Shown: piece by piece, positions 752-20,508 of the stretch
How the letters are laid out: every line of letters begins with the position of its first letter
Numbering within the stretch: the stretch's first letter is position 1
Assembly (NCBI GenBank): GCA_017798145.1
Contig: CP059069.1
Span: 519,226 to 543,225, forward strand
Reading direction: 5' to 3'
DNA length: 24,000 nt
Source: Akkermansiaceae bacterium
GTDB lineage: Bacteria; Verrucomicrobiota; Verrucomicrobiia; Verrucomicrobiales; Akkermansiaceae
Program-made: the position numbers and the translations under genes
The notes under the pieces: model-generated
What the model was told of the DNA's origin: nothing
The model's input: the letters and a program-made list of their open reading frames with translations, nothing else
The model's database searches: none

Positions 752-760
752 CCCGCGACC

Positions 761-1687: not shown

Positions 1688-1710
1688 AATCCAACCCATC
1701 ACCGCAGCCC

Positions 1711-7877: not shown

Positions 7878-7949
7878 AGGTGTCCAATGCTTTCTTGGCA
7901 AAGATGCAAAGAACGCTACGCTCGCTATTAAATGAGGGCTGACCAAATC

Positions 7950-10900
7950 ATGAAGATACTCCCCGTCGCACCTGTCCTACTCTGTGCAATCATCTCTTTC
8001 CCGCTGTTTCCAACGGGCGCATTAGCTGCCGGAACGACACCTTCATGGCAGGAGATCGGGCCACTGAACATGCCCAGCTTTGAACCGAGCCAAGGGCGGG
8101 TCAATGCGGTTGCCTTTGACCCGGGCAACGCCAATCGCTTTTTCGTTGGAGCGGCCACCGGTGGCGTATGGCGCACCACCGATGGAGGGGCGAACTATAC
8201 GCCAGTCAGTGATAACCTACCCAATCCAGGAGTGAGTTCCCTTGTGGTGGACTACTCAAATGCCAATAGAATCTATCTCGCCACTGGCGACGCGGACGGT
8301 TCCGCTGTTTATAGCATTGGTGTGTGGAAATCGGACGACGGCGGCGGCACATGGGTTGCGACTGGGCTCACCTTTCCCGCCACGGGATTTACCAGAATTT
8401 ATAAACTCATCCAACATCCGACAGCCCCGAATACTCTCTTTGCGGCAACCAGCGCCGGCCTCTATACGACCGCCAATGGCGGCACCACCTGGACCAATTC
8501 GCTAAGCGCTTACAAGCTCTATGACCTCGAATTTAAGCCGGGAACTCCGAGCGTGTTCTACGCCTGTGGCTCCGACGCCGGGGGCGGGAGGTTTCTCCGC
8601 TCTACGGACACGGGAGCCACCTGGAGTGTCATCGCCACTGGTCTGCCTGCCTCAACGGGTGTGGGGCGTTGCGCGATCGCACCTACGTCAGCAGCCCCCG
8701 GCACCATTTATTTCCTGAGTTCCGGGACTTCAAGCTATTATGGCCTATGGCGCTCGCAGGATTCCGGACTTTCCTTCTCTCAGATGTCAGGCAGCGGTGC
8801 TTCCAATGTGTTTTCCGGAGTGTCTTCATACAAATGCACCCTCACTGTCGCGCCCGATGCCGCCGATGAGGTGTATGTGGCGGGTACGACTCCTTTCAAG
8901 TCTGAGGATGGTGGTTCGACTTGGACTGAAATCCGCAATGATGCCGCTTTTGCGATGGTCTGCCATGTTGATTTTCATGCTATGGAATGGCGGGGCGCTG
9001 ATCTCTATGTCGGTACGGATGGAGGGCTGCACAGAACTGCCAATCGAGGGATCAACTGGACCGATCTGAGCGCCCGGCTAGGCATTGCACAAATCTATGC
9101 TTTCGGTCAGACCGAAGCCACCGCAGCTCTCGTCTACACGGGACAGCAAGATGATGGGCTCAACCGCTGGAACGGTTCATCATGGGCGCATGTGCAGGTT
9201 GGCGACTGGGGGCGGAGTGTCATACATCCGTTTCAGGCGTCGATTGGATACGCCTTCGTTCAGTCCAGCCTGAGAAAGACCACCGATGGATGGAGTTCCA
9301 GTCAGGCCCTTACGATCACCTCGACTGAGTCCGGACCATTTGTGAATACCTCACTCGTCATGGATCCGCTTGTGCCTGAGACGCTCTATGCTGGCTTGCA
9401 GAATGTCTGGAAAACCACCGACGAAGGGGTCACCTGGAGCAAGGTCTCCACCTTCGGATCAGGTACGGTGTCCTCTCTTGCCGTGGCGTCTTCCAACCCG
9501 AAATATATTTACGCCAGCACCAGCACGGGTGACCTATGGGTCACACAAAACGGAGGTGTTAGCTGGACGAATACGCGTGCCCACGGACTCCCCTCCTCGG
9601 GAGGGCGTGCACTCAGACAAATCGCCATCAGCCCGGTTGACCCAAGCACAGCATACCTCTCAACCGACGGCTATGGCACAGGGCCGCGCATCTACCGCAC
9701 CACCAGCGCTGGGGGAACCTGGTCTGATTATTCCGGCTCCCTGCCCGCAGTTCCCGTGCGCAGTGTCGCAGCAGCGGATGGTAACAAAGCAGGGGTCTAT
9801 GCCGGCACCAGCCTCGGCGTCTATTACCGGAGTTCGTTACTTTCAGATTGGATTCCCTTCAACACAGGGATGCCAAACACCTTCATCTCCGATCTACAAA
9901 TTCACAGGGGCTCCCAAAAACTACGAGCCGGGACGTATGGTCGCGGTCTTTGGGAGTCGTCGATAGTCGAAGTCCCGCCCATAGTCACAACGGGGAACGT
10001 GATGTCTTTCATTGCTGCCGCATCAGAGAACTGCGATAGCTTGGCGAGCGTGACGGCAAGCGTTTCTGACGGATACAGCGTGGTGGACACGACGATCTTC
10101 GACAGTGCAACTGCCTCCTTCCATCTCGCCCATGCTTCCTACGCCCCGCAGTCGATTGCGTTGAATGCCGAGTATGTGCCGACTGCCACCTCCAACCTGC
10201 AGTTTCGCAGCCGCCTCGGGTTGGCGACCCCAACCCAGATAATTCATGTTCAGGCATCGACTGATGGCGGCGTCTCATGGACGGACATTTATACGCAAAG
10301 CGGCAGCGGGACATCGGGTGAGAGTTCATTCAATACGCGAAACGTATCGCTGGCGGCCTATGAAGGATCGGTCATCAGGTTGCGTTTCACATACAGCGTA
10401 TCCGGCAGCTACTATCCCCAAACCAGCAACGGGATCGGCTGGCATTTTGACTCTGTCAGTTTCACCGATACCTCTCAGATCACCGCAACCAACCCTTCTG
10501 CCACTGTCGTGAACGGTTCCGTCAATCCGAACGGAATGGCATCGACAGCATGGTTTGAATTTGGCACCACAAGATCTTATGACACACGGAGTGCCATACG
10601 GAATATAGGGAGTGCCGCCTCTGCCGCTCCGATCACGGAAACATTAACCGGTTTACTTCCTGACACGACCTACCATTACCGCGTTGTATCCGTTAATCCA
10701 GATGGCACCAGCCAAGGGCAGGACCGGACATTCGTCACGGGTGGCGCAACAGCCTTTTATGTGTGGGCAAGCGCTAATGGGGTATCTAACGATCCAAATG
10801 CAATCGGTGCCAATGGCATCAAGAACCTCCTCAACTTCGCTTTCGGAGTGGATCCGGTGAATGGCGATGGCGGCGGCCTGGAATACACCGGCACCTTTGC

Positions 10901-11174
10901 CGGAGGCGGGACGATCAAGGCTACCGGTCAACCTATAACGCTCTATGCGGGAGCCGACTTCCGCACCATCTTTGTCCGGCGCAAAGACTACAATGTGGCC
11001 GGACTGACTTACACCGTGCAGTTCAGCGCAAATTTGAGCATGTGGGAGGATGGTGGCGTGCCAACCGTGCTTGCAGATAACGGCATCTATGAAATCGTAA
11101 GCATTGGGTATCCGCCGCTCGTCGACGGTCTGCCACCCCACTTTTTCCGACTCAAGGTTAGCGTTACGCCGTGA
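7950..11174 (+). CDS. secreted Asp-box (BNR) repeat beta-propeller protein with C-terminal Ig/FN3-like modules
   Basis: At least 9 SxDxGxTW-type Asp-boxes are present (TTDGGANYT, KSDDGGGTWV, TANGGTTWT, STDTGATWS, SEDGGSTWT, TANRGINWT, TTDEGVTWS, TQNGGVSWT, TSAGGTWS). The in-frame ATG at 7950 gives the signal peptide MKILPVAPVLLCAIISFPLFPTGALAA and is preferred over the track start at 7932. Confidence 0.85.
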   Translation: MKILPVAPVLLCAIISFPLFPTGALAAGTTPSWQEIGPLNMPSFEPSQGRVNAVAFDPGNANRFFVGAATGGVWRTTDGGANYTPVSDNLPNPGVSSLVVDYSNANRIYLATGDADGSAVYSIGVWKSDDGGGTWVATGLTFPATGFTRIYKLIQHPTAPNTLFAATSAGLYTTANGGTTWTNSLSAYKLYDLEFKPGTPSVFYACGSDAGGGRFLRSTDTGATWSVIATGLPASTGVGRCAIAPTSAAPGTIYFLSSGTSSYYGLWRSQDSGLSFSQMSGSGASNVFSGVSSYKCTLTVAPDAADEVYVAGTTPFKSEDGGSTWTEIRNDAAFAMVCHVDFHAMEWRGADLYVGTDGGLHRTANRGINWTDLSARLGIAQIYAFGQTEATAALVYTGQQDDGLNRWNGSSWAHVQVGDWGRSVIHPFQASIGYAFVQSSLRKTTDGWSSSQALTITSTESGPFVNTSLVMDPLVPETLYAGLQNVWKTTDEGVTWSKVSTFGSGTVSSLAVASSNPKYIYASTSTGDLWVTQNGGVSWTNTRAHGLPSSGGRALRQIAISPVDPSTAYLSTDGYGTGPRIYRTTSAGGTWSDYSGSLPAVPVRSVAAADGNKAGVYAGTSLGVYYRSSLLSDWIPFNTGMPNTFISDLQIHRGSQKLRAGTYGRGLWESSIVEVPPIVTTGNVMSFIAAASENCDSLASVTASVSDGYSVVDTTIFDSATASFHLAHASYAPQSIALNAEYVPTATSNLQFRSRLGLATPTQIIHVQASTDGGVSWTDIYTQSGSGTSGESSFNTRNVSLAAYEGSVIRLRFTYSVSGSYYPQTSNGIGWHFDSVSFTDTSQITATNPSATVVNGSVNPNGMASTAWFEFGTTRSYDTRSAIRNIGSAASAAPITETLTGLLPDTTYHYRVVSVNPDGTSQGQDRTFVTGGATAFYVWASANGVSNDPNAIGANGIKNLLNFAFGVDPVNGDGGGLEYTGTFAGGGTIKATGQPITLYAGADFRTIFVRRKDYNVAGLTYTVQFSANLSMWEDGGVPTVLADNGIYEIVSIGYPPLVDGLPPHFFRLKVSVTP

Positions 11175-11492
11175 GAAGGAGGGCTTGAATTTCTTTTGTA
11201 GCAAATACGTATCACCGCACACTTTGGCAATCCCAGCTGGGATCTGAGTGAGACTCTGCCGAGGGAACAAGGGGGATGACCTCGTGTCGGCGAATGGCGT
11301 CGGTGTCGGTCATGGGCAGAAATGATTTGGGTGGGGGTCGTGCTGCGGCAAGCCGGGTGCGAACAATGAGAGAAGCAGGACAGTGGTGCCTGCTTCCAGG
11401 TTCGCCAACGGAATTACGTCCCGCTCCGCGTCATAATGAATTGAAAGGAACCGTGGGTTTCTTCCCTCAACACCAACCCCAATACTGACACT

Positions 11493-12515
11493 ATGAATCC
11501 AACACCACACACCAACCAAACCCTCCTCGAAGGCATCTGCCGACGCGGAGTCCTTGTCGCAACATCCGTCCGTTACTGGCGGGGTTGCAAGCGGCTCAAT
11601 CCCGAAGACCTCGGCCTTGATCCCGCGCACGTTTCCGACCGGCTCATCCAGCTCGGTCACAAACGCCTGATCCCCCGTGATGCGCTCTCGGCCTTCGCCC
11701 TGATCGAGTCCCGGACAAACGCCTCCGTGGAGTCTTCGAGCTTTCCCTTCCTGGGAGGCATCGGACGCTTCGTGCCGAACCCCCGGCTCGGCGACCTCAC
11801 CGACAAGCTCAACCAGCTCCGTGAGGAGTTCCGCGAGGCCACGCTCGACTTCGTCGCAGGTTACGCACCCCTGCGTGATGCCGCGATGGAGGAGTGGCGC
11901 GAAGCCGCCCAGCACCTCAACGGAAGTGCAGAGCGCCTGATCGCAACCATCGAGCAGTCGTTCCCGCCCGCCGGGGAGATCGCCAAGCGCTTCGCCTTCG
12001 AGACACGCTTGTTCCAGATTGCCGCCCCCGACCACATCCGCCTGGAAGTGGCCGACGGCATGGAGCGGCTTGAAGTCGCCGACGACCGCCGCCGCATTGC
12101 GGAGGAGGCATCGCGCCGCCTTCAGTCCGACCTCGACGGCTTCATCCGCGAGAGCGTCGCCTCGATGCGTGAGGAAACCGCCCGGCTCGCCGGAGAGGTT
12201 CTCGCCACCATCGACGGATCGGAGAACGGAGTCCACCAGCGCACGCTGAACAGGCTCACCACGTTCATCGACAGCTTCCGTTCGTTGAACTTCGCCGGAG
12301 ACCAGCAGCTGGAGCAAACGCTCGAACGCTTCCGCCGCGACCTGCTCACCCGCAGCGCGGAGGACTACCGCAACGACAGTGCGGCGATGGGCAGCCTCAC
12401 CCAAGGGCTCGCCCGCCTCCGCGAAAACGCCGTCCAGCTCGCCCGCAGCGACGCCCGCGAACTCGTCTCCCGCTTCGGACAGATGGGATCGCGCAGGCTC
12501 GCAGCGGTGAGCTGA
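11493..12515 (+). CDS. DUF3150-like protein (plasmid/ICE-associated family, function unknown)
   Basis: The N-terminus, VLVATSVRYWRGCKRLNPEDLGLDP...LIQLGHKRLIPRDALSAFALIESR...FPFLGGIGRFVPNPRL...LREEFREATLDFVAGY, matches the DUF3150 pattern as I remember it (W-G-x-K-x-L-x-x-EDLGL ... LG-x-K ... FL-G). It is chosen over the longer antisense ORF on composition and on its CA-rich leader. Confidence 0.65.
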   Translation: MNPTPHTNQTLLEGICRRGVLVATSVRYWRGCKRLNPEDLGLDPAHVSDRLIQLGHKRLIPRDALSAFALIESRTNASVESSSFPFLGGIGRFVPNPRLGDLTDKLNQLREEFREATLDFVAGYAPLRDAAMEEWREAAQHLNGSAERLIATIEQSFPPAGEIAKRFAFETRLFQIAAPDHIRLEVADGMERLEVADDRRRIAEEASRRLQSDLDGFIRESVASMREETARLAGEVLATIDGSENGVHQRTLNRLTTFIDSFRSLNFAGDQQLEQTLERFRRDLLTRSAEDYRNDSAAMGSLTQGLARLRENAVQLARSDARELVSRFGQMGSRRLAAVS

Positions 12516-12608
12516 GACTGGCACCACTACTGGCAGCCCGGTGGAAGTTTGATCTTCCGCCGGGTTGCCTCTACTTTCGATCCAACCCCAACATGGAGAC
12601 CACACCCC

Positions 12609-13178
12609 ATGCCCTACATCCGCAAAACATCCCGCAAACCCGGACGCCACTTCGTCACCCTGGACCGCCTCACAGAGGCCAACTGGCAGGTGACCGTGGA
12701 AATGGACAAGCTCGGTCTCTGGTGCGACGAACTCTATGAGATCGACGTATGGCTCGTGCCCGTTTCCTTCTGCTGCTACGGCTGGTTCCAACCGGAGGGC
12801 GACATCTACATCCCGGCTGTGACCGGAGCCAACCTATCCGATTTCATCACCAGCCATCACACACGCCTTACCGACGTCCTGCGCCACGAGTGGTCGCATG
12901 CGCTGGCCGACCGCCGGCCGGAGCTGGTCGATAGCAAACGCTTCGTCCGCACTTTCGGCGGCGACTACGATTCGCGCCACCCCGTCCGGGATCACGACCC
13001 GGATCACCACCTGACGCCCTATGCCGCCACAAGCCCTTGCGAGGACTTTGCGGAAACCTTCCACTACTACATCCGGCACAAGGGAAGGCTGCCGCTGCGC
13101 CTCGCCAACAAGACTAAGATCGCCCGCAAGTGGGAGTTCATCGAGTGGATGGCGGGTAGGATTTCTAAAGCAATCTGA
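12609..13178 (+). CDS. putative zinc metallopeptidase (HExxH)
   Basis: HEWSH lies at nt 12885-12899, with a downstream SPCEDFAETFHYYI segment typical of small zincin-like peptidases. ATG 12609 (MPYIRKTSRK) is preferred over the track's TTG 12549 because the leader word CAACCCCAACA sits 15 nt upstream, as at other starts. Confidence 0.7.
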   Translation: MPYIRKTSRKPGRHFVTLDRLTEANWQVTVEMDKLGLWCDELYEIDVWLVPVSFCCYGWFQPEGDIYIPAVTGANLSDFITSHHTRLTDVLRHEWSHALADRRPELVDSKRFVRTFGGDYDSRHPVRDHDPDHHLTPYAATSPCEDFAETFHYYIRHKGRLPLRLANKTKIARKWEFIEWMAGRISKAI

Positions 13179-13220
13179 TACTGTTCGCCCCGGCCGACAG
13201 GATCGCCCAAACTCCACATC

Positions 13221-13925
13221 ATGAAATGCCTCACTTGGAACCTCGAATGGACGAACCCGGCCAGCCGCCGGGCAAGTTTGATCAATGAACTCATCTCCGG
13301 GATCGATCCGGACGTCATCTGCTACACGGAGGTCAACAAGGACATGGTGCCAGCAGGGCACATCATCGAGGCCGATGCCGATTATGGCTATCCAATGAAA
13401 CCTGGTCGCAGAAAGGTTCTGCTCTGGAGCAAGTATCCCTGGACGCAACCCGATGCCTACGGGGATGACGAGTTGCCGAGCGGAAGGTTTGCCATGGGCG
13501 TGTGTAGAGGGATCCGCTTCGTCGGAGTCTGCATTCCTTGGCGTGATGCCCATGTGAAGACAGGGCGGCGCGACCGTGCCCCTTGGGAGGATCACATTTC
13601 CTATTGCGCAGGCCTCGGGCGCATCCTCCGGCAGCATGCCGCCGATGCGGAGCCGCTCTGCGTTTTGGGGGACTACAACCAACGAATCCCCAGGGTCAGC
13701 CAGCCGATAAATGTCGCCCAGGCTCTTGCCGAGGAGATTCCGGATGATTTTCGGATAGCTACAGCCGGTGCAACCGACCTCGAAGGCCTGAACCTCATCG
13801 ACCACATCACCGTATCAGCGGGACTTGAAATCTCGGTCACCGGATTTCTGCCGAGAACCTCCGAAGACGGAACCCACCTTTCCGACCATTCGGGAGTCGT
13901 GGCAGAACTCCAAGCCCTCGACTGA
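13221..13925 (+). CDS. endonuclease/exonuclease/phosphatase (EEP) family protein
   Basis: Motifs are in canonical EEP order: MKCLTWNLEW, DVICYTEV, VLGDYNQRI, IDHITVS and LSDHSGVVAEL. Confidence 0.85.
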   Translation: MKCLTWNLEWTNPASRRASLINELISGIDPDVICYTEVNKDMVPAGHIIEADADYGYPMKPGRRKVLLWSKYPWTQPDAYGDDELPSGRFAMGVCRGIRFVGVCIPWRDAHVKTGRRDRAPWEDHISYCAGLGRILRQHAADAEPLCVLGDYNQRIPRVSQPINVAQALAEEIPDDFRIATAGATDLEGLNLIDHITVSAGLEISVTGFLPRTSEDGTHLSDHSGVVAELQALD

Positions 13926-13974
13926 GCCATCGTCCAGCGGATCAAATCCGCGAGCCTCTACGGCCTCATTTCCG

Positions 13975-14007
13975 AGCCCGCCCGGTCACCAACCCGGCGG
14001 GCTTTTT
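13975..14007 (+). terminator. intrinsic terminator after the EEP gene
   Basis: AGCCCGCC(C)GG pairs with CCGGCGGGCT (one bulge), followed by TTTTT. Confidence 0.65.
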
Positions 14008-14030
14008 CGTGCCGTAGTTGCGGCATCTCC

Positions 14031-14180
14031 ATTTCCCCAGCCAGCCCACTACACCTCCCGTCACATTACTCCGCCCCAACCAGCCTGAATTTTAAACCAC
14101 CACCAATCCCACCACCAATCCCACCACCTCCAACGAAACCACCCGACCCAACCCCACTGCCAAAACACAACGACTCATCC
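14031..14180 (+). promoter_or_regulatory. G-depleted, C/A-rich untranslated tract (rut-like leader or ncRNA body)
   Basis: My hand count gives about 11 G in 150 nt. The tract lies between a terminator (13975-14007) and a second terminator-like hairpin (14186-14225). No plausible ORF is present. Confidence 0.35.
14097..14129 (+). repeat. 12-nt tandem repeat CCACCACCAATC, about 2.7 copies
   Basis: CCACCACCAATC occurs at 14097-14108 and 14109-14120, followed by the partial copy CCACCACCT. Confidence 0.8.
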
Positions 14181-14185
14181 GCACG

Positions 14186-14225
14186 AAGGGCGGCTCCATA
14201 CCGGGGCCGCCCTTTGTGCGTTTCC
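14186..14225 (+). terminator. terminator-like / attenuator hairpin in the leader of the DUF1257 operon
   Basis: AAGGGCGGCTCC pairs with GGGGCCGCCCTT (about 12 bp including one G-U), followed by TGTGCGTTTCC. It lies 36 nt upstream of ATG 14261 and downstream of an already complete terminator. Confidence 0.5.
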
Positions 14226-14260
14226 AGCAAAACAACAACCAACCAAATACGAACAACCAC

Positions 14261-14650
14261 ATGTCACACTTCACCACCATCCAGACCCAGATCCGGGATC
14301 TTGAAGCCTTGCGCGACGCATCCGTCGAACTCGGCCTCCAGCTCCTGGCTGATACCCAGTGCCGGGGCTACGCCGGCATTACCCGTCCCGCACCGCACGT
14401 CATCAAGCTCAAGGGCCCGTATGACATCGCTGTCGAGCCGGACAAGGAGAACCCCGGCTGCTACGGCCTCACCACCGACTGGTGGGATGGGCACGTCGCC
14501 AAGGAAGTCGGCACCGGCTACAGCCGCCTGCTGCAATCCTACGGCGTCCACAAGACCATGCGCGAGGCCGCCACACGCGGGCTGCGCCACACCCGCAGGA
14601 TCGAGGCCGACGGCACCGTCCTGCTCACCCTGGAAGGAGGTTCGCTATGA
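14261..14650 (+). CDS. DUF1257 (Ycf35-like) protein
   Basis: MSHFTTIQTQIRDLEALRDASVELGLQL... is the characteristic DUF1257 N-terminus as I remember it. ATG 14261 is preceded by the leader word CAACAACCAAC. The stop overlaps the next ATG. Confidence 0.8.
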   Translation: MSHFTTIQTQIRDLEALRDASVELGLQLLADTQCRGYAGITRPAPHVIKLKGPYDIAVEPDKENPGCYGLTTDWWDGHVAKEVGTGYSRLLQSYGVHKTMREAATRGLRHTRRIEADGTVLLTLEGGSL

Positions 14651-14847
14651 GCCGCAAGATCCTTGTCCGTGTTTCCCCAGCCGGGGAGATCAGCGTCGAG
14701 GCCGAGGGCTTCCAGGGAAAAGGCTGCGAGGCCGCCACCAAGGCGATCGAGGACGCACTCGGGAAACCCCAGGCGCGCACCCGCAAGCCGCAGTTCTGGC
14801 GACCCCAGTTCCTCCGCAACGAACAACAGCTAGGAGGCGAGGGATGA
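14647..14847 (+). CDS. DUF2997-like small protein (66 aa)
   Basis: MSRKILVRVSPAGEISVEAEGFQGKGCEAATKAIEDALGKPQARTRKPQF matches the remembered DUF2997 pattern (beta-hairpin, G-x-G-x-x-C, LG, basic tail). ATGA overlaps occur at both ends (14647-14650 and 14844-14847). Confidence 0.75.
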   Translation: MSRKILVRVSPAGEISVEAEGFQGKGCEAATKAIEDALGKPQARTRKPQFWRPQFLRNEQQLGGEG

Positions 14848-15140
14848 AATCCACCCTCCGCTTCAACCCCGGCGGTCACATCGACTGCCTCTACACCGAA
14901 GCGATCGATCTCCGTGCGCTCGGGCGACTTCATGTCGTCCGGGCCACGGACATCCGTTTCTGTGAAAAGACCCAACTGTGGAAAGTCCGCTGTGCCTCGT
15001 CCGGCCAGCTCCTCCACAGCGATCCCTCCCGCGAGGCATGCCTCGTCTGGGAACATGAAAACCTCGGCCCACCCAATCCGGAACCACCGAGACCCACCGG
15101 CACACTGCCAAACCTCAGACCGGTCACAGGCCGGCTCTGA
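14844..15140 (+). CDS. hypothetical small protein (98 aa)
   Basis: This is the C-terminal 98 codons of track ORF 14214-15140, starting at the ATG that overlaps the DUF2997 stop: MKSTLRFNPGGHIDCLYTEAIDLRALGRLHVVRATDIRF... It is wedged between two recognisable genes of the same operon. Confidence 0.55.
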   Translation: MKSTLRFNPGGHIDCLYTEAIDLRALGRLHVVRATDIRFCEKTQLWKVRCASSGQLLHSDPSREACLVWEHENLGPPNPEPPRPTGTLPNLRPVTGRL

Positions 15141-15163
15141 CAACCAAGAACCAATCCAAACTT

Positions 15164-16690
15164 ATGAACCTCACCACCTACCTCCGCGCCGGATACCCCG
15201 GCCTCGCCATCATCAGTTCCGAGGAAGCTCGTGCCGAAGCGGAAATCGCCAACGCATGCACTTCCCTGAAACGCAAACTCCTCGCCTGGTCCTCCACGGA
15301 GGGTCTTGCCGATGTTAAGGAAGGGCGCGTCACCCCGTGCCCCGACCCACTCGATGCCTTCCAGCTTCTGGACGGCGTCTTCGCCTCGGACAAGCCACGC
15401 CACGTCGTGCTGCTCCGGGATCTCCAACTCCACCTCGACCAGAGCGACCCCATGCTCGTGCGCCGCATCAAGGACGCACTGCGCATCGCCAAGGCCAACG
15501 GCCACACCATCGTCCTGCTCGGCTGCCGTTTGAAACTGCCCGCCGAACTCGAACACGAGATCACCCACGTTGATTTCGACCTGCCCGACCCGGCGGGGCT
15601 TCACACCGTGCTCGATGGCATCATCAAGTCGGCGAAGCTAAAGAATGTCCACGAGGTGATGCGGGAGGCAGCCGTCCAGGCAGCCCTCGGCCTCACCACC
15701 ACGGAAGCGGAGAACGCGTTCGCCCTGTCGGTCATAGAGACCAATGGGATCGACCACCGCATCATCTCCCGTGAAAAGGCGAACACGCTGAAACGAAACG
15801 GCCTCGTCGAGGTCGTCGGGAACGCCACCTCCCTGGAGGACATCGGCGGACTCGGCCTGCTCAAGGAATGGCTGCAACGCCGCTCCGGTGCATTCAGCGA
15901 ATCCGCGAAAGCCTACGGGCTGCCCGCACCGAAAGGATTACTCATCGTCGGCATCCCCGGCACCGGGAAATCGCTCACCGCGAAAGCCACCGCCGGAGCA
16001 TTCGGCCTGCCGTTGCTGCGCCTCGACATGGGGCGTGTGTTCGGTGGCATCGTCGGCCAGTCGGAAGCCAACCTCCGCTCCGTCATCCAGACCGCCGAGG
16101 CCATCGCCCCGTGCGTGCTGTGGATCGATGAAATAGAAAAAGGCTTCTCCGGAAGCTCTTCGAGCGGCAGCACCGATGGCGGCACCTCCTCCCGTGTCTT
16201 CGGCTCGTTTTTGAGTTGGATGCAGGAGAAGACCAAGGCGGTGTTCGTCGTGGCGACGGCGAATGATGTTTCCAAGCTCCCGCCCGAGTTCCTGCGCAAG
16301 GGAAGGTTCGACGAAATGTTCTTCGTAGATTTACCCGACGCCTTCGAGCGTGCGCAGATCTGGGACATCGTCATCGCCCGGCACAAGCGCAAGCCAACCG
16401 ACTTCGACACCGTCGTCCTCGCCCGCGCCTGCGAGCAGTTCACCGGGGCGGAGATCGAGGCCGTGTTCATCGACGCCATGCACGAGGCCTATGCCGAAGG
16501 CGAGGAACCCAAGCCCAAGCACATCCTCGAAGCCATCAACGGCACCGTCCCCCTGGCGCAGCTCATGGACGGCAAGATCGCCGCGTTGAGACATTGGGCG
16601 AAAGGCCGTGCCCGTGAGGCAGCGAGCCGGAGCAACACCACGTCGTCGGCATCCTACCGCCCCAACAGACGGATGTCCGGGATGAACTGA
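15164..16690 (+). CDS. Ycf46-like AAA+ ATPase
   Basis: Walker A is GIPGTGKS (nt 15950-15973; K269 at 15968) and Walker B is CVLWIDEIEKGF. The region GGTSSRVFGSFLSWMQEK...VFVVATANDVSKLPPEFLRKGRFDEMFFVDLP closely follows the Ycf46 family sequence as I remember it. The length (508 aa) and a non-AAA N-terminal domain also fit. Confidence 0.9.
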   Translation: MNLTTYLRAGYPGLAIISSEEARAEAEIANACTSLKRKLLAWSSTEGLADVKEGRVTPCPDPLDAFQLLDGVFASDKPRHVVLLRDLQLHLDQSDPMLVRRIKDALRIAKANGHTIVLLGCRLKLPAELEHEITHVDFDLPDPAGLHTVLDGIIKSAKLKNVHEVMREAAVQAALGLTTTEAENAFALSVIETNGIDHRIISREKANTLKRNGLVEVVGNATSLEDIGGLGLLKEWLQRRSGAFSESAKAYGLPAPKGLLIVGIPGTGKSLTAKATAGAFGLPLLRLDMGRVFGGIVGQSEANLRSVIQTAEAIAPCVLWIDEIEKGFSGSSSSGSTDGGTSSRVFGSFLSWMQEKTKAVFVVATANDVSKLPPEFLRKGRFDEMFFVDLPDAFERAQIWDIVIARHKRKPTDFDTVVLARACEQFTGAEIEAVFIDAMHEAYAEGEEPKPKHILEAINGTVPLAQLMDGKIAALRHWAKGRAREAASRSNTTSSASYRPNRRMSGMN

Positions 16691-16735
16691 CCCGCGCCGT
16701 AGCTGTGGCATCCTGCCGCATGCCCCATAATATCC

Positions 16736-16768
16736 CTGCCAGGGAGAGTTCCATCCTCTCTCTGGCAG
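16736..16768 (+). terminator. strong hairpin after the AAA+ gene (probable terminator, weak U-tract)
   Basis: CTGCCAGGGAGAG pairs with CTCTCTCTGGCAG (13 bp including one G-U, 7-nt loop). The tail is CATGCCTTTCCC. Confidence 0.45.
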
Positions 16769-17004
16769 CATGCCTTTCCCTCTCAAAACTCCCGCACCCA
16801 ACCCTTCCTAACTCCCCGCCACCCATCCCTCAAGAGCGCTCGGCAGCGCGGCTTACAAAGCCGTGATCCTCACCTCCCACCTCACTCGATACCTCCAGCG
16901 GTAGTCTGAACACAAGCGCCGTTGAACGAAACAGCTGGGGTGCACCCGAAAGGCCGCCCCAAGTCGCTTGTGCGGGGAAAGAAAAACGGTAAAAGAGCAA
17001 AAGG

Positions 17005-18027
17005 TTAAAGGGTAAAACGACGCCTTCTGGTCAGCAACGCGCTAGCTGACAATACCGTCAAAAGTAATGCCGACGGCTCGGGGACACTGGCGACGCGGAA
17101 CCCCACGTAGTCGAGCTCGTTCGGGGGCGTGTTGACGTTGCTTTTGGACGCGGGCAGGGAGTCGGAGTTGTTGGCCCACGAACCGCCCCGCATCCCGCGC
17201 GTCGAACCAAAGACCACCGCATCGTTCCATTCAAACACGTTCCCCGCTTGGTCGTTCGTTCCATACGCGCTCTCCGAATTCGGGCCATACGCACCGACAT
17301 CCGTCAGATAGTTCTGGCTGCTGCTGTAGCTACCGCTCTGCGTCACCGCAAAATCCGTGCTATCGAAGTAATTCGCCGCGCCTGCCGCGCCGACGGTGTT
17401 GCTGTTGATCGTATTGCTCTGCGTAGCCTGCGCCCAGTAGCCGCCCACTCCGGGACCGCCCTTGTTCGGATCATAATACGCCGCCTTATACCACTCGTTT
17501 TCCGAAGGGAGCCACACCGTGGCTCCCACGTTCTTCGAGGACCCCACGCCGCTGGTCGCGCCGTTGAGCGTGTAGGCTCCGTCTTCCGTGGTGGATGCGT
17601 TCTGCGCTCCCGTCGTCTGGCCGTTGTGCAGCCAGTTGGTGAAACGCGCCGCATCGAACCAGCTCACGTAGGTGATGGGGCGGTTCCCGCTGCCGAGCAC
17701 GGTGTAGGAATAATCTCCCGATGTGCCGATGCGCTGGATGCCCGAAATGTTCGCGTTCGTCTGCATGGAAGTGTTGTAAAGCGCGTAGGTGTCCGTTTTG
17801 GCCACGGCGTTGAGGAACGCGGCATACTGCGAGATGGTCGTCTCGTTCTTCGAAATCTTGTATTCATAGCCAACCGCGCCGTAAAGACCGCCGGTCGCCG
17901 CGTCGTTCGCGTTGTTGATGTCACCGACGGTGACGTAGTCTATGCTGACAACGGCGAAGGCCGGAGTTCCAAGGGCGATGCCAGCCAGAACGGCGAGCCT
18001 GCGGGAGGGAATAATAGGGAGTTTCAT
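17005..18027 (-). CDS. FGE/SUMF1-domain (formylglycine-generating-enzyme fold) protein with signal peptide and PEP-CTERM anchor
   Basis: The signal peptide is MKLPIIPSRRLAVLAGIALGTPAFA. FGE-fold motifs include RPITYVSWFDAARFTNWL, VFEWNDA, RGGSW and GFRVA. The C-terminal VPEPSALLLTVLSASALLTRRRR is a PEP-CTERM sorting signal. Confidence 0.85.
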   Translation of the reverse strand: MKLPIIPSRRLAVLAGIALGTPAFAVVSIDYVTVGDINNANDAATGGLYGAVGYEYKISKNETTISQYAAFLNAVAKTDTYALYNTSMQTNANISGIQRIGTSGDYSYTVLGSGNRPITYVSWFDAARFTNWLHNGQTTGAQNASTTEDGAYTLNGATSGVGSSKNVGATVWLPSENEWYKAAYYDPNKGGPGVGGYWAQATQSNTINSNTVGAAGAANYFDSTDFAVTQSGSYSSSQNYLTDVGAYGPNSESAYGTNDQAGNVFEWNDAVVFGSTRGMRGGSWANNSDSLPASKSNVNTPPNELDYVGFRVASVPEPSALLLTVLSASALLTRRRRFTL

Positions 18028-18204
18028 AAAGAAGGGCTACAAGTGACCCTCTAGAAAACAGAAAACGTGCCGGATCACAAGAGATTTAGAGGGGCGTTTT
18101 TGAGGCTGAAGGCCTGCCCACCGAAGACGGCACGATGCCCAATTTCCCCTGCATGACAGACCCGCCCCGCACGACGTGCACAAGCGCGGCGCGGGTCACG
18201 ACAA

Positions 18205-18256
18205 GGCCGCCACGGACTCCCTGGAGAAGGGAACCCGTGGCGGCCATTTCTTTTCC
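18205..18256 (+). promoter_or_regulatory. orphan terminator-like hairpin in the ligase leader
   Basis: GGCCGCCACGG (18205-18215) pairs perfectly with CCGTGGCGGCC (18235-18245), followed by ATTTCTTTTCC. There is no upstream + strand gene for it to terminate, because the neighbour is divergent. Confidence 0.5.
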
Positions 18257-18311
18257 AACCCCTCTCACCACGAGAACCAAACCAACAACCAACCCCAATC
18301 CATACCAAAAA

Positions 18312-19403
18312 ATGAACATCAGCATCACCAGCACGTCCCTCCATTTCCGCGAGGGCAACTCAGACAAGGAATACCACGTCGCCGTCGAGCCGGAGGGCGA
18401 GGGCTACATCGTCACCTACGCCTATGGCCGCAGGGGCTCAACCCTCACCACCGGTAGGAAGACCCAGCACATCGTCACGCTCACCGAAGCGAACAAAATC
18501 CACGACCAGCTCGTCCGCCAGAAGACCGCGAAAGGCTACCGCCCCGCCGGGGAGTCCCGCCAGCCCGACCGCACCAGCACAACCGACGGACAGGACAGCG
18601 GCATCCGCTGCCAGCTCCTCAACCCTGTTGACGAATCCGAACTCGACCGGCTCCTCGGCAGCGATGCCATCTGCCTCCAGGAAAAGTTCGACGGACGCCG
18701 CCTCATGGTTCGCAAACGCGGGGACGAGATCACCGGTATCAACCGCCGTGGACTCATCATCCCCATCCCGGAACCCATCCGCCACGCCTTGAAAGAACTC
18801 CCCGTGGATGTCCTCATCGACGGCGAGGCGGTCGGCGACACCCTCCACGCCTTCGACCTCCTTGAGGTGAAAGGCCACGACATCCGGGGCAACGCCTACC
18901 TGTCACGCTTCGCCGGGCTGCTCACCCTCCTCGATCCCGAACACAAGCACCTCCGCCCCGTGAACACCCACATGGAGGCTGAGGAGAAACGCGCCATGTT
19001 CGAGACCTTCCGCCGATGCGGCAGCGAGGGGGTCGTCTTTAAGGAGATCGACGCACCGTTCAGCCCCGGCCGCCCGAACTCCGGTGGTAGACACCTGAAG
19101 TTTAAGTTCGTCGAGAGCGCCTCGTTCATCGTCACCGGGCACAACGCCAAGCGCAGCGTCACCCTCGGCCTGCTCGCGGAGGACGGCGGAGGCATCGTCC
19201 CCGCAGGCAAGGTCACCATCCCACCGAACCACCGGATCCCGGCAGTCGGTGCCGTCGCGGATTGTCGCTTCCTCTACGCCTTCCGGGAAAGCGGCAGCAT
19301 CTACCAGCCTGTCTATCTTGGCGAACGGGAGGACATCCCCGCCGAGGACTGCACCACCGCTCAGCTGAAATACAAAGCCGAGCCAATGCAGGTAGCCGCC
19401 TGA
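18312..19403 (+). CDS. WGR-domain::ATP-dependent DNA ligase fusion
   Basis: The N-terminal WGR-like module is SDKEYHVAVEPEGEGYIVTYAYGRRGSTLTTGRK...KTAKGYRP. Ligase motif I is QEKFDGRR (K at nt 18684), III is VLIDGEAV, IIIa is LHAFDLLEV, IV is EGVVFKE and V is HLKFKF, followed by an OB-like tail. ATG 18312 is preceded by both leader words, so the track's upstream extension from 18135 is rejected. Confidence 0.85.
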   Translation: MNISITSTSLHFREGNSDKEYHVAVEPEGEGYIVTYAYGRRGSTLTTGRKTQHIVTLTEANKIHDQLVRQKTAKGYRPAGESRQPDRTSTTDGQDSGIRCQLLNPVDESELDRLLGSDAICLQEKFDGRRLMVRKRGDEITGINRRGLIIPIPEPIRHALKELPVDVLIDGEAVGDTLHAFDLLEVKGHDIRGNAYLSRFAGLLTLLDPEHKHLRPVNTHMEAEEKRAMFETFRRCGSEGVVFKEIDAPFSPGRPNSGGRHLKFKFVESASFIVTGHNAKRSVTLGLLAEDGGGIVPAGKVTIPPNHRIPAVGAVADCRFLYAFRESGSIYQPVYLGEREDIPAEDCTTAQLKYKAEPMQVAA

Positions 19404-19480
19404 TCCCAAACCTTCCGGCAAGGACCCACGAGGCAAGCCCGAGTCGCACGACATCATGTAGCGCGACCGGGGTAACACCG

Positions 19481-19531
19481 GCCGCCATGGAGAATCCTGA
19501 TGAAGGAAATGCTCCATGGCGGCTTCTTTTT
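19481..19531 (+). terminator. intrinsic terminator after the ligase gene
   Basis: GCCGCCATGGAG (19481-19492) pairs perfectly with CTCCATGGCGGC (19512-19523), followed by TTCTTTTT. Confidence 0.7.
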
Positions 19532-19609
19532 AGACCCGAGGTAGGCATGTGCCCTGCTTCTCGTATCAGTTCCATGAGGCGCTCACTACCAAAGGCGGCC
19601 CGGAAAGTA

Positions 19610-19644
19610 AGATTCTCGTCCGGTTATAATTATGGCAAGAATCT
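19610..19644. promoter_or_regulatory. 7-bp inverted repeat bracketing a TATAAT hexamer upstream of the sigma gene
   Basis: AGATTCT (19610-19616) and AGAATCT (19638-19644) flank TATAAT (19625-19630). I see no convincing -35 element. Confidence 0.3.
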
Positions 19645-19709
19645 CCAGCTTTGCTCAATGAATGATTGTGAATTGCGTGGTGCGCGGAAGTTTGCAAGCA
19701 TTCCTCCCG

Positions 19710-20453
19710 ATGTCCGATGACGAGTATTACTCCCCTACGCCTTCTTCGTCGAAAGGCCTTTTTCCGACGACACGGTGGACCATCGTCCGGAATCTTTCGG
19801 ATGGCGAACGGCGGATCAGATTTCCCGCTTGGGATGAGTTTGTCACCTCCTACCGCAAGCCGCTGGAATACTGGCTAGTCGCCCGCTGCCGGGATCCTCA
19901 CTTGTCGGAGGAATTGGTGCAGTCATTCCTGGCCAAGATGTCGAGCCATGAGCACGCTCTGAACTCGCTGGATCCATCCAAAGGGAGGCTCCGTTCCTGG
20001 TTGCTGGTCTGCCTCAAGCGCCATTGGCTGGATAACCTGCCGAAGTCTTTCGACGAACTGCCTGATGGATATGCGGATGCCGATGTGAAACCGGATGAGG
20101 ACTTCGACGGTGTGTGGGCAAGGAGCGTCGCGCAACGTGTCGTCCGGCAACTTCGGTCCGAGTATGCATCGCGTAAAAGAGTCGATCTTTTCGACGCACT
20201 GCTCGGCGTGATCGACGGGGCGGCGATTGAGGAACGCACCGCCCTCCATGTGCGTTTCGGAATGACGGCGAACACCTTCGACCAAGCCCTGGCACGCCTT
20301 CGCGAGCGCCTCGCGCTGCGCCTGAGGGAGGAAGTCGCCGCCACATTGGTTGACGGACAGGATAGCGATGTGGATGACGAACTTCGTCACCTGATCCTCG
20401 TCCTCGGCCGCAACGGAGGCTTTGCACCGGAGTCTGCTGGCGCGGAAACATGA
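19710..20453 (+). CDS. divergent ECF-type sigma-70 family factor (putative)
   Basis: The N-terminus, FPTTRWTIVRNL...AWDEFVTSYRKPLEYWLVARCRDPHLSEELVQSFLAKM, resembles the T-x-W-S/T-x-V opening and region 2 of planctomycete/verrucomicrobial ECF sigmas that pair with Ser/Thr kinases. An HTH-like TALHVRFGMTANTFDQALARLRERL lies near the C-terminus. A kinase gene lies directly downstream. Confidence 0.55.
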   Translation: MSDDEYYSPTPSSSKGLFPTTRWTIVRNLSDGERRIRFPAWDEFVTSYRKPLEYWLVARCRDPHLSEELVQSFLAKMSSHEHALNSLDPSKGRLRSWLLVCLKRHWLDNLPKSFDELPDGYADADVKPDEDFDGVWARSVAQRVVRQLRSEYASRKRVDLFDALLGVIDGAAIEERTALHVRFGMTANTFDQALARLRERLALRLREEVAATLVDGQDSDVDDELRHLILVLGRNGGFAPESAGAET

Positions 20454-20508
20454 ATAATCCCTGTCAGGTTTCTGCCGATTGAGCGTTCTTACCAGACAGG
20501 TCGCAACT

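Follow-up and report, generated by a model that had tools for sequence, protein, structure and literature searches.

Two of the gene families considered here, ycf35 (DUF1257) and ycf46, have long been recognized as conserved open reading frames of cyanobacteria and plastids to which no mechanism has been assigned. Cyanobacterial ycf35 also neighbours a DUF2997 gene (PMC4284462) and in Synechocystis sits with the ferredoxin gene fed7, whereas ycf46 lies in a separate operon, of unknown function, with expression induced both by stress and by (p)ppGpp (bioRxiv 10.1101/2025.07.21.665879; PMC7496141). Other described systems that invite comparison are the Cdc48/p97/VAT motors; IetAS and SgiAT, in which an AAA+ ATPase is paired with an S8 protease; the type I Mokosh system (MkoA plus MkoB); and the IncC bet-exo-DUF3150-VWA/MoxR-like plasmid region, a conserved backbone that combines an exonuclease, DUF3150 and an AAA+ system, with variable cargo in hotspots. 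A region similar to the last is found in SXT/R391 elements.

In a 24,000-nucleotide stretch of an Akkermansiaceae genome (GCA_017798145.1, contig CP059069.1, positions 519,226 to 543,225; hereafter the window), genes for a DUF1257 protein, a DUF2997 protein, a 98-aa protein (p98) and an AAA+ ATPase constitute one operon of four genes (Table 1). The locus shares the Pfam families DUF1257 and DUF2997 with the cyanobacterial and plastid genes, their function being unknown in both settings, and a Geminocystis plasmid likewise has DUF1257 and DUF2997 beside its ATPase. Here, however, the genes form a single coupled operon with an extra member, p98, beside an exonuclease, DUF3150, a ligase and a clamp, and in place of a housekeeping setting they occupy the multi-copy mobile-element backbone of an Akkermansiaceae host that is, as an earlier note made from the sequence alone had supposed, non-photosynthetic. 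The description of the ATPase in that note as Ycf46-like is borne out only by its COG0464 name (JGI uses that label, 'SpoVK/Ycf46/Vps4') and by full-length similarity to a cyanobacterial-plasmid 'AAA family ATPase' (40.7% identity over 94%), the comparison having covered plasmid-encoded cyanobacterial genes. No mechanism for the module is described in the searchable literature.

Table 1. Features of the operon and of the element backbone, in window coordinates.
Feature	Position	Strand	Evidence
179-aa protein, backbone	6427-6966	+	no family match; overlaps exonuclease start
PD-(D/E)XK exonuclease, backbone	6963-7823	+	PDDEXK_1, 8.2e-32; phage exonuclease phrog_69, 7.8e-16
DUF3150 protein, backbone	11493-12515	+	Pfam PF11348, 4.8e-25
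Hairpin with perfect 18-bp stem	14180-14220	+	RNA fold: -38.6 kcal/mol, z -6.9
DUF1257 (Ycf35-family) protein, 129 aa	14261-14650	+	Pfam PF06868, 33.4 bits
DUF2997 protein, 66 aa	14647-14847	+	Pfam PF11211, 52.4 bits
98-aa protein (p98)	14844-15140	+	phrog_38408, 2.2e-8
AAA+ ATPase, 508 aa	15164-16690	+	Pfam AAA and AAA_lid_3
ATPase, putative degenerate AAA-like N-domain	residues 1-215		
ATPase, predicted active classic-clade AAA module	residues ~216-470		
Hairpin with 13-bp stem, 3' of ATPase stop	16736-16768	+	RNA fold of 16691-16800
WGR-domain ATP-dependent DNA ligase, backbone, 3' of module	18135-19403	+	Pfam DNA_ligase_A_M and WGR

The operon opens with an ATG at 14261 that can be read directly in the sequence, and its junctions are those described in the note: the DUF1257 stop overlaps the DUF2997 start in an ATGA at 14647-14650; the DUF2997 stop overlaps the p98 start in a second ATGA at 14844-14847; and a gap of 23 nt separates the TGA of p98 (15138-15140) from the ATG of the ATPase gene at 15164. 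GGAGG and AGGAGG motifs lie 7-9 nt 5' of the two internal starts. This arrangement goes beyond chance, because dozens of unrelated genomes have the same gene set and because 15 of 18 Verrucomicrobial loci retain the 4-nt overlap of DUF1257 and DUF2997; the earlier view of the four genes as one conserved, translationally coupled unit is supported. Upstream, the 18-bp-stem hairpin, which none of 200 shuffled sequences equalled in folding, makes a terminator-like boundary between the preceding cargo genes and the operon; a consensus promoter and terminator scan of the plus strand returned no match, the hairpin having been missed because its T-run is short. Downstream, the region 16691-16800 folds at -36.4 kcal/mol (z -4.8), and its hairpin is the likely 3' boundary of the transcription unit. 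The note had placed the end of the module at 16768, which agrees with the end of this hairpin, whereas the ATPase gene itself stops at 16690.

Both DUF assignments are borne out by Pfam, the match to DUF1257 (E 5.5e-8; cut-off 22.2 bits) spanning model positions 4-101 of 103 and that to DUF2997 (E 4.7e-14; cut-off 24.1 bits) positions 1-46 of 47. The DUF1257 protein, which starts with an invariant MSHF, is 54-95% identical across 20 Verrucomicrobial loci and 100% identical to one encoded on a 4.39-Mb Akkermansiaceae contig; exact-protein look-ups of the window genes and of this identical DUF1257 gave no match. DUF1257 and DUF2997 are an obligate pair: their genes usually adjoin, are translationally coupled, and in some genomes have been joined into one (24 Clostridial fusion proteins). 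The AlphaFold model of such a fusion is compact (pLDDT 82.7, pTM 0.75), and comparison of the fold with solved and viral structures gave no significant match, so that its role is not readable from structure. The third gene product, p98, is a member of a real, unnamed protein family with a conserved N-terminal domain of ~74 aa and a variable Pro-rich tail, for which 341 cluster representatives were retrieved at E<=1e-3 among 1.84 billion; it matches no family in Pfam and is unrelated to either DUF1257 or DUF2997. Homologues of p98 lie 3' of DUF2997 in 17 of 80 genomic loci and in two phages, RHph_I4 of Rhizobium (4e-24) and HJ05 of Aeromonas (3e-14). Several loci have 1-3 kb of unrelated coding sequence between p98 and the ATPase.

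The fourth protein is an AAA+ ATPase, as the note had it (Pfam 103.9 bits, 1.2e-29, residues 259-389, plus a match to AAA_lid_3), and matches phrog_8638 over its full length (7.4e-138). Its Walker A motif (G263-S270) contains the lysine that the note had singled out, K269; Walker B (D322/E323), sensor-1 (N367) and the Arg fingers (R378/R381) are also intact, and all of these motifs are conserved in the 117 relatives checked. The nearest solved relatives are the D2 modules of Cdc48/p97 (2.8e-51, residues 211-442 only). In hhalign, residues 99-192 of the N-domain align with the AAA module of the same protein (probability 77.6%, E 1.9e-5), with a beta-alpha pattern in the AF2 model at only 60-86 pLDDT, and the first module (D1) has no Walker A. 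A degenerate AAA copy in the N-terminal half would make the protein type-II-like, its D1 being dead and its D2 live and close to that of Cdc48. The AlphaFold model of the whole ATPase is poor (pLDDT 57), because the alignment took in only relatives of at least 81% identity, and could not serve as a structure-search query. A Ser/Thr kinase at 20479-21924, grouped with the ATPase by single-linkage clustering, was rejected as an artefact of that clustering, direct comparison finding no similarity.

With Cdc48/p97/VAT, motors that have adaptor cofactors, the ATPase shares the most similar AAA module and a putative tandem layout with a degenerate first module, and it is co-encoded with small accessory proteins. 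Unlike those motors, it has no double-psi-barrel N-domain, its D1 is without Walker A, no cofactor fold is known for its partners DUF1257 and DUF2997, and pore loop 1 is an aliphatic I-V-G (I296-V297-G298) instead of the aromatic-hydrophobic-Gly motif. The aromatic position is occupied by Leu in 62 of the 117 relatives, Ile in 30, Tyr in 10, Val in 6 and Phe in 4, which amounts to Leu or Ile in about 80%. With the canonical aromatic missing, threading-type unfolding is not assured, and the unfoldase half of the earlier label 'unfoldase/remodeller' is accordingly uncertain. The AAA domain also matches IetA of PADLOC and IteA of NCBIfam and, like IetAS and SgiAT, is borne on a mobile element; but the score against NCBIfam NF042959 is 80.4 bits where the cut-off is 510, the PADLOC IetA match is confined to residues 247-459, the N-domain and partners are not the same, and no S8 subtilase partner (Peptidase_S8) was found among the neighbouring ORFs of the window.

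Comparison of Verrucomicrobial loci assigns the module to the conserved backbone of a multi-copy mobile element integrated in the genome, as the mobile-element-like neighbourhood described in the note had suggested. Two copies of the element per genome are present in GCA_041686775.1 and in MAG ELA110 (L022 and L044), and the backbone includes phage-type genes for an exonuclease, a processivity factor (sliding clamp) and a ligase. Its order is 179-aa protein, PD-(D/E)XK exonuclease, DUF3150 protein, module, WGR-ligase and sliding clamp, and defence-like genes are variable cargo between these. The 179-aa protein, which is paired with the exonuclease as a single-strand annealing protein might be, has no match in Pfam, PHROG or PDB; it and the exonuclease are conserved and syntenic in eight related loci (L005, L006, L014, L019, L021, L023, L025 and L026). 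DUF3150 is found in most Verrucomicrobial and Planctomycete loci (16 of 21 tabulated) and lies directly 5' of the module in minimal layouts, two cargo genes intervening in the window; in L014 and L021 the PDDEXK_1 gene, DUF3150 and the module directly follow one another. DUF3150 adjoins a gene of this ATPase family at 16 of the 80 genomic loci and at 6 of the 38 viral ones. The ligase (phrog_114, 1.3e-16) follows the ATPase in nine other loci as well (L004, L005, L006, L014, L021, L067 and L132-L134), and the ATPase is the most conserved backbone protein, at 82-87% identity versus 58-65% for the ligase. Extra replication-type genes encode a DnaB-like helicase in L021 and a DNA-polymerase-like protein in L134. 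A PLD protein of the window, 9 kb from the module, is variable cargo that is absent from all related loci. A search for a tRNA and flanking repeats inside the window found neither.

The resemblance of this backbone to the IncC region lies in the association of exonuclease, DUF3150 and AAA+ system and in the hotspots of variable cargo. The components differ: the IncC ATPase is a MoxR/CobS-like protein of ~320 aa with a VWA partner, whereas the one described here is apparently a Cdc48-like tandem protein with DUF1257 and DUF2997; and the IncC exonuclease is a lambda-Exo with Bet, whereas this one is of PDDEXK_1 type with the 179-aa partner.

At least eight bacterial phyla and the archaea contain full-length relatives of the ATPase, which are also found on plasmids and in phages. 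Partner HMMs were built from domain envelopes, and divergent partners, including DUF1257-like proteins that are not recognized by Pfam alone, were recovered by profile-profile comparison. Both DUF1257(-like) and DUF2997 genes accompany the ATPase in 47 of 80 genomic loci, and are adjacent in 43 of these 47; among loci with full flanks, 32 of 51 have both. The association of small proteins with the ATPase proposed in the note thus extends across phyla, up to the fusion of two of them, and the neighbourhood survey found the small ORFs conserved with the ATPase and the gene set outside a housekeeping-only context. Presence of the partners tracks particular ATPase clades over bacteria, archaea, plasmids and phages. 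DUF1257 and DUF2997 are absent from the examined flanks of ATPase relatives in Corndog-like mycobacteriophages, on Klebsiella conjugative plasmids (in a VWA/CARF/PP2C/kinase context) and on a Treponema plasmid; therefore, the ATPase family is broader than the triad of ATPase, DUF1257 and DUF2997. Recurrent partners of the gene set are a radical-SAM protein of glycyl-radical-activase type, an HHH protein, DUF3150 and a Mokosh-like helicase.

In phages RHph_I4 and HJ05, the ATPase, DUF1257, DUF2997 and p98 genes lie directly 5' of a RepO-like gene (Pfam Phage_rep_O in HJ05), which in RHph_I4 is followed by annotated genes for a DnaB-like helicase and DNA polymerase I. The neighbours of the four-gene set in HJ05 are unannotated. 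The presence of all four genes beside replication genes in two phages, and of the triad in large viral contigs, favours a function for the element over classical host defence. We tentatively propose that the module is a mobile-element protein remodeller with DUF1257·DUF2997 as cofactor, acting on replication or recombination complexes. DUF1257·DUF2997, together with p98 in Verrucomicrobia, would bind the hexameric motor, either as its cofactor or as its substrate protein; the motor would use ATP to remodel or dismantle a protein-DNA assembly needed for replication, recombination or establishment of the element, the candidate targets being an initiator/helicase-loading complex or a recombination complex; and the surrounding defence-like genes would be independent cargo. 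Several observations count against this proposal: p98 and the ATPase are set apart by other genes in several loci, pore loop 1 is without its aromatic, the DUF1257-DUF2997 fold matches no solved or viral structure significantly, and two operon partners of the triad in other lineages, an MkoA-like helicase and a radical-SAM protein of glycyl-radical-activase type, have no obvious replication function.

The note had put the module forward as a candidate for either a conflict or a remodelling system, and we prefer the second: the module is part of the fixed backbone, not variable defence cargo. A conflict role, whether in defence or in anti-defence and host takeover, would have the motor sense or disable a foreign or host protein with DUF1257·DUF2997 as sensor or adaptor; we regard it as rather unlikely, and keep it in view since the operons of some relatives include a Mokosh-like helicase or a radical-SAM activase. 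The ATPase, DUF2997 and DUF1257-like genes of Bacteroidota, Clostridia, Phycisphaerales and methanogens share a conserved operon with an SF1 helicase that matches MkoA (1.2e-67) and is of the same length as the model, and a weak MkoB-like protein is present in some of these loci; the type I Mokosh system, however, has been described without the ATPase and DUF genes, and no helicase of MkoA (COG1112) type, with AAA_11/AAA_12, was found by Pfam among the large ORFs of the window. The patchy occurrence of the module over bacteria, archaea, plasmids and phages implies horizontal transfer, defence-type genes often lie nearby (AbiE, GmrSD, HEPN, RloB with an ATPase, zeta toxin, PLD and AAA_15), and related AAA+ proteins act in IetAS and SgiAT (PMC10954446). 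Against a conflict role, PADLOC lacks models for DUF1257, DUF2997 and p98 and recognizes only the AAA domain, as IetA; defence genes vary around a Verrucomicrobial module that is itself fixed and, unlike typical fast-turnover defence genes, is 81-96% identical in more than 100 clusters; phage genomes carry the module beside replication genes; and a search of all four proteins for an effector domain (nuclease, protease, TIR or pore) found none.

It is improbable, though suggested by a further recurrent neighbour, that the module is a radical-SAM system, in which an enzyme of glycyl-radical-activase type would act on DUF2997 or DUF1257, with their invariant Gly and Cys, the motor would load, unfold or recycle the product, and the Verrucomicrobial version would have lost its activase or would use that of the host. 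The operon includes a Fer4_12 radical-SAM gene of ~190 aa at 16 of the 80 genomic loci and at 10 of the 38 viral ones, and such a gene is also present on Paenibacillus, Bacillus and Treponema plasmids; the closest solved relative of its product is pyruvate formate-lyase activating enzyme (9.6e-10). A G-F-x-G-x-x-C motif (Cys27) is conserved in DUF2997, and the cyanobacterial DUF2997 and ycf35 genes cluster with fed7 (PMC4284462). Neither the window nor any Verrucomicrobial locus contains a radical-SAM gene, however, and the link is one of gene neighbourhood only. The known glycyl-radical motif is RVxG[FWY], from which that of DUF2997 differs. Finally, a host stress or proteostasis device that serves host physiology, like the stress- and (p)ppGpp-induced cyanobacterial ycf46 operon, and is carried only incidentally by mobile elements is very improbable: the families are those of ycf35 in cyanobacteria and plastids and, at COG level, of ycf46, but outside cyanobacteria the genes are found in phages, plasmids and multi-copy elements beside replication and recombination genes and in no housekeeping contexts, and at L132 housekeeping genes begin only past the element edge.

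DUF1257, DUF2997 and the matching AAA+ ATPase therefore have to be considered a mobile gene set of at least eight bacterial phyla, archaea, plasmids and cultured phages that points to DNA-linked rather than photosynthetic biology. The set is carried by tractable systems, among them phages of Rhizobium and Aeromonas and plasmids of Bacillus and Paenibacillus. For the Verrucomicrobia, the comparison defines a previously undescribed mobile-element backbone with inter-gene hotspots that collect defence genes. A bolder proposal than the protein remodeller preferred above, and a long shot, is that DUF1257·DUF2997 represents a new kind of protein cofactor or substrate, conserved in phages, in mobile elements of archaea and bacteria, in cyanobacteria and in plastids, that is handled by a dedicated tandem AAA+ motor and was ancestrally modified by a radical-SAM activase of glycyl-radical type, the whole depending on ATP and radicals and working on DNA or nucleoprotein complexes. 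If this reading of a radical-SAM-modified cofactor were true, ycf35 and ycf46 would be what is left, in domesticated form, of a mobile-element system.

The four genes of the module, which encode a DUF1257 protein, a DUF2997 protein, a 98-aa protein (p98) and an AAA+ ATPase, form a real, coupled operon bracketed by two strong hairpins (see table). The DNA itself shows the 23-nt gap and both ATGA overlaps of stop and start that the earlier note had described, together with GGAGG and AGGAGG motifs in the 3' ends of the preceding genes, just 5' of the two internal starts; the downstream hairpin explains why that note ended the module at 16768. Three of its domain assignments are borne out by Pfam (DUF1257, 33.4 bits against a cut-off of 22.2; DUF2997, 52.4 bits against 24.1; AAA with AAA_lid_3, 103.9 bits), and K269 is indeed the Walker A lysine. 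Among Verrucomicrobial loci, DUF1257 and DUF2997 overlap by 4 nt in 15 of 18, and DUF2997 and p98 are spaced by -4 to +6 nt wherever both starts can be placed, whereas the distance from p98 to the ATPase is looser, with -4 nt at one extreme and inserted genes totalling 3.2 kb at the other; thus, the three small genes are the tightest unit.

Coordinates of the module, backbone genes, inserts and hairpins in the window
Feature	Coordinates	Size	Strand or direction	Remarks
Putative cargo block	77-5558		co-directional	AAA_15/AAA_21 + DUF3696 ATPase; two ORFs (761-1687, 1711-3369); 730-aa PLD-family nuclease
179-aa protein	6427-6966	179 aa		backbone
PD-(D/E)XK exonuclease	6963-7823			backbone
BNR/sortilin protein	7932-11174			insert between backbone genes
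DUF3150 protein	11493-12515			backbone
Zn-peptidase-like + EEP nuclease pair	12549-13925			insert between backbone genes
Upstream hairpin	14180-14220			perfect 18-bp stem, -38.6 kcal/mol, z -6.9
DUF1257 gene	14261-14650	129 aa	co-directional with other module genes	module
DUF2997 gene	14647-14847	66 aa	co-directional	module
p98 gene	14844-15140	98 aa	co-directional	module
ATPase gene	15164-16690	508 aa	co-directional	module
Downstream hairpin	16736-16768			13-bp stem
FGE-sulfatase-domain protein	17005-18027		-	insert between backbone genes
WGR-ligase	18135-19403			backbone
Sigma-70-like gene + Ser/Thr protein kinase	19662-21924			downstream of ligase

When all genes of the window are compared with 21 related loci, the four module genes turn out to belong to a conserved backbone, common to Verrucomicrobial copies of an element, together with the 179-aa protein, the exonuclease, DUF3150 and the WGR-ligase. 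The seven backbone genes are contiguous in L014 and L021 (L numbers denote loci used for comparison), minimal layouts without the BNR/sortilin, Zn-peptidase-like plus EEP and FGE-sulfatase inserts. Further backbone genes of the related loci encode a phage-type sliding clamp (phrog_947 of the PHROGs phage protein families, 1.4e-39), a sigma-like protein, a polymerase-like protein (L134) and, in L021, a protein that clusters with one encoded in the DnaB position of Aeromonas phage HJ05. Two copies are present in each of two genomes, GCA_041686775.1 and the MAG ELA110 (L022 and L044). Backbone membership, contiguity and multiple copies show the module to be a conserved core part of a mobile element, one that is integrated and self-replicating. 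At L132 (8359-11524), an ATPase copy without DUF1257, DUF2997 or p98 lies beside an IS200-type Y1 transposase, with LpxD, OmpH, PanC and a Succ_DH/FAD-binding flavoprotein (possibly NadB) just upstream; these housekeeping genes probably mark an element edge. IncC plasmids offer a parallel: a MoxR-like AAA ATPase sits there beside a VWA protein, DUF3150, Bet and lambda-Exo; SXT/R391 elements possess a region resembling the IncC bet-exo-DUF3150 block.

Defence genes are cargo in hotspots of the element. The first block of the window, the ATPase of which may start before the window, is absent from all related loci and so looks like variable defence-type cargo. No counterparts of its AAA_15/DUF3696 fragment, two family-less ORFs and PLD nuclease, or of the BNR/sortilin protein, EEP nuclease, sigma-like protein and kinase, were found in the other 21 loci; the Zn-peptidase-like protein has its only relative in L004, and the FGE-sulfatase only a weak match of 30% identity in L014. 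In other loci, the cargo that fills the gaps between backbone genes includes AbiE, DUF4276 with a ResIII helicase, and a methyltransferase with GmrSD and HEPN. The sigma-like and kinase genes may be divergent backbone genes, since sigma-like and Pkinase genes are likewise present in L134 (15687-18886).

The gene set extends far beyond the Verrucomicrobia. With each species represented by a single genome, a scan yielded 80 loci with full-length ATPase relatives (39-88% identity) from Verrucomicrobiota, Planctomycetota, Myxococcota, Chloroflexota, Bacteroidota, Bacillota, Actinomycetota and Omnitrophota, and from the archaeal Hodarchaeota, Methanococcoides and Methanomethylophilaceae. Genomic hits in all number at least 593. 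Partners were called with locally built clean domain HMMs and profile-profile rescue of divergent partners, which recovered three divergent DUF1257-like groups at 99%, 96% and 80% probability. DUF1257 or a DUF1257-like protein is present in 52 of the 80 loci, DUF2997 in 49, both in 47 and both adjacently in 43 (DUF1257 first in 33, the reverse in 8, fused in 2). Where at least 3 kb is available on both sides of the ATPase (51 loci), 32 have both partners and 15 neither. Partner presence follows ATPase clades, and the pair is co-inherited with particular clades.

DUF1257 and DUF2997 are an obligate pair, and their fusion is real: in two Clostridial ORFs DUF1257 occupies residues 1-119 and DUF2997 residues 127-172, and 24 fused proteins are on record. 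The AlphaFold model of the fusion is compact (pLDDT 82.7, pTM 0.75) and has no significant match among solved or viral predicted structures (best E 0.02 and 0.004, TM-scores <0.35); the non-significant hints are RnlA-NTD-like, TBP-like or KA1-like. Searching the PDB by sequence returned nothing useful for DUF1257, DUF3150 or the 179-aa protein. The Met-Ser-His-Phe at the extreme N-terminus of DUF1257 (14261-14272) is unusually conserved, being invariant from Verrucomicrobia through the Clostridial fusions, and may be a functional site; a conserved G-F-x-G-x-x-C motif of DUF2997 may also be important. The 98-aa ORF is a genuine gene: p98 matches phrog_38408 and, in an exhaustive search, 341 cluster representatives at E<=1e-3, mostly of 75-120 aa and aligned over the first ~74 residues, and its homologues follow DUF2997 in two phages. 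It is unrelated to DUF1257 and DUF2997. Small ORFs accompany the ATPase across phyla; the earlier note had named their lack of conservation with it as grounds for rejecting its reading.

The two phages, Rhizobium phage RHph_I4 (108 kb) and Aeromonas phage HJ05 (79 kb), encode the ATPase, a ~210-aa protein, DUF1257, DUF2997 and the p98 homologue, directly followed by a RepO-like gene, which matches Phage_rep_O in HJ05 and, weakly, HTH_36 in RHph_I4. Next in RHph_I4 come genes annotated as a DnaB-like helicase and a DNA polymerase I; the HJ05 genes in equivalent positions lack annotation, one being the gene that clusters with that of L021. Among 38 IMG/VR contigs with an ATPase relative, several of 140-490 kb, 12 have both partners and 10 a radical-SAM gene within the cluster. 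Plasmids carry related sets: ATPase-DUF1257-DUF2997-radical-SAM on Paenibacillus polymyxa pPPM1a; radical-SAM, a 151-aa protein, HHH, ATPase and DUF2997 on a B. cereus megaplasmid; and the ATPase adjoined by DUF1257 and DUF2997 on a Geminocystis plasmid. Corndog-type mycobacteriophages, Klebsiella conjugative plasmids and a Treponema plasmid possess ATPase relatives without the DUF genes, so the ATPase family is wider than the triad it forms with them. On a Klebsiella IncF plasmid (L002, 2689-11431), a 715-aa relative, frequent among the conjugative plasmids of enterobacteria (465 Klebsiella records), lies in a different operon: VWA protein, uncharacterized protein, AAA, DUF1887/CARF protein, uncharacterized protein, PP2C phosphatase and kinase.

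We read the ATPase as a tandem AAA+ protein, of which D1 would be degenerate and D2 active. Its AAA module (about residues 211-445) is nearest among solved structures to Cdc48/p97 D2 (2.8e-51). Residues 1-200 match no solved protein; by profile-profile comparison, residues 99-192 align with the protein's own AAA module at its lid and sensor-1 strand (77.6% probability, E 1.9e-5), and a low-confidence AlphaFold model has a compatible beta-alpha-beta pattern. An alignment of 117 full-length bacterial, archaeal and viral relatives shows that Walker A (GxPGxGKS) and Walker B (WIDEIEKG) are kept, as are N367 as sensor-1 Asn, the Arg-finger residues R378 and R381 and several N-domain motifs; the normally aromatic pore-loop-1 position is Ile in the window ATPase and L in 62, I in 30, Y in 10, V in 6 and F in 4 of the family. 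The full-length protein matches phrog_8638 (7.4e-138). More than 100 cluster representatives are 81-96% identical, and those with named sources are from Akkermansiaceae, Luteolibacter and Haloferula; together with a 100% identical DUF1257 protein on a contig of an Akkermansiaceae bacterium, this identifies the host as a Verrucomicrobium, upholding the non-photosynthetic setting proposed earlier. A 227-aa "mini-AAA" downstream of the ligase in L133 (15604-16287) and L132 (17015-17698) is a paralogue of D2 (27% identity, E 3e-24) with Walker A and without the pore-loop segment.

Five kinds of gene recur beside the ATPase in addition to DUF1257 and DUF2997: a ~190-aa Fer4_12 radical-SAM protein (16/80 genomic loci), HHH_3 (9/80), DUF3150 (16/80 genomic and 6/38 viral loci), a ~1100-aa SF1 helicase (9/80) that matches MkoA of the Mokosh system (1.2e-67) and is followed in Bacteroidota by a weakly MkoB-like protein, and, in Myxococcota, an FHA protein. 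Methanogens, Clostridia, Bacteroidia and Phycisphaerales have in common a seven-gene cluster (L046, L055, L063, L066, L076 and L080, about 10000-19800 in each) of the ATPase, the MkoA-like helicase, two uncharacterized ~500-670-aa proteins, DUF2997, a DUF1257-like protein with a coiled-coil insert, and the radical-SAM protein. DUF3150 also adjoins the ATPase family in IMG/VR contigs without DUF1257 and DUF2997 (L095, L099, L107, L109, L112, L114) and occurs at L130 (6983-8260) and L131 (7004-8053); on a Geoalkalibacter plasmid, it comes after a free-standing WGR protein.

The module adjoins replication genes in phages and is itself part of the backbone in mobile elements. We tentatively favour a role in which the small proteins, as cofactor or client, would associate with the hexameric motor, which would remodel a protein-DNA assembly required for replication, recombination or establishment of the element. 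The main alternative, a conflict role in defence or anti-defence, gains from the operons linked to Mokosh and from a distribution that is patchy and spread horizontally; we judge it less likely, given that the module has a fixed position in the backbone, very high conservation, a phage replication-module context and no effector domain of any kind. The window ATPase matches the PADLOC and NCBIfam models of IetA/IteA, the AAA+ protein of the IetAS defence system, over the AAA domain only (NCBIfam 80 bits against a cut-off of 510), and PADLOC defence models do not match the three small proteins. The earlier note's interpretation holds in part: a conserved module on a mobile element stands, though it belongs to the core equipment of the element and is not demonstrable defence cargo.

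Chemistry centred on the radical-SAM protein is improbable. This partner is of the glycyl-radical-enzyme-activase type, its closest solved relative being pyruvate formate-lyase activating enzyme (PflA, 9.6e-10), and no obvious glycyl-radical enzyme lies near it in L007 (8597-9178), L129 (2951-3592) or L001 (4339-4947). About as improbable is a generic stress or proteostasis role like that of the cyanobacterial ycf46 operon, which is stress-induced and the function of which its authors call unknown (bioRxiv 10.1101/2025.07.21.665879; PMC7496141).

Full-text literature searches on DUF1257, DUF2997, DUF3150 and Ycf46 with phage turned up mentions of only that operon and the cyanobacterial DUF2997-ycf35-fed7 gene cluster (PMC4284462), and no account of the triad as a system was found for organisms other than cyanobacteria. 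The module is best described as an AAA+ motor with dedicated small partners; it reaches unusually far across organisms and is linked to ycf35 and ycf46, two genes that still lack an explanation.
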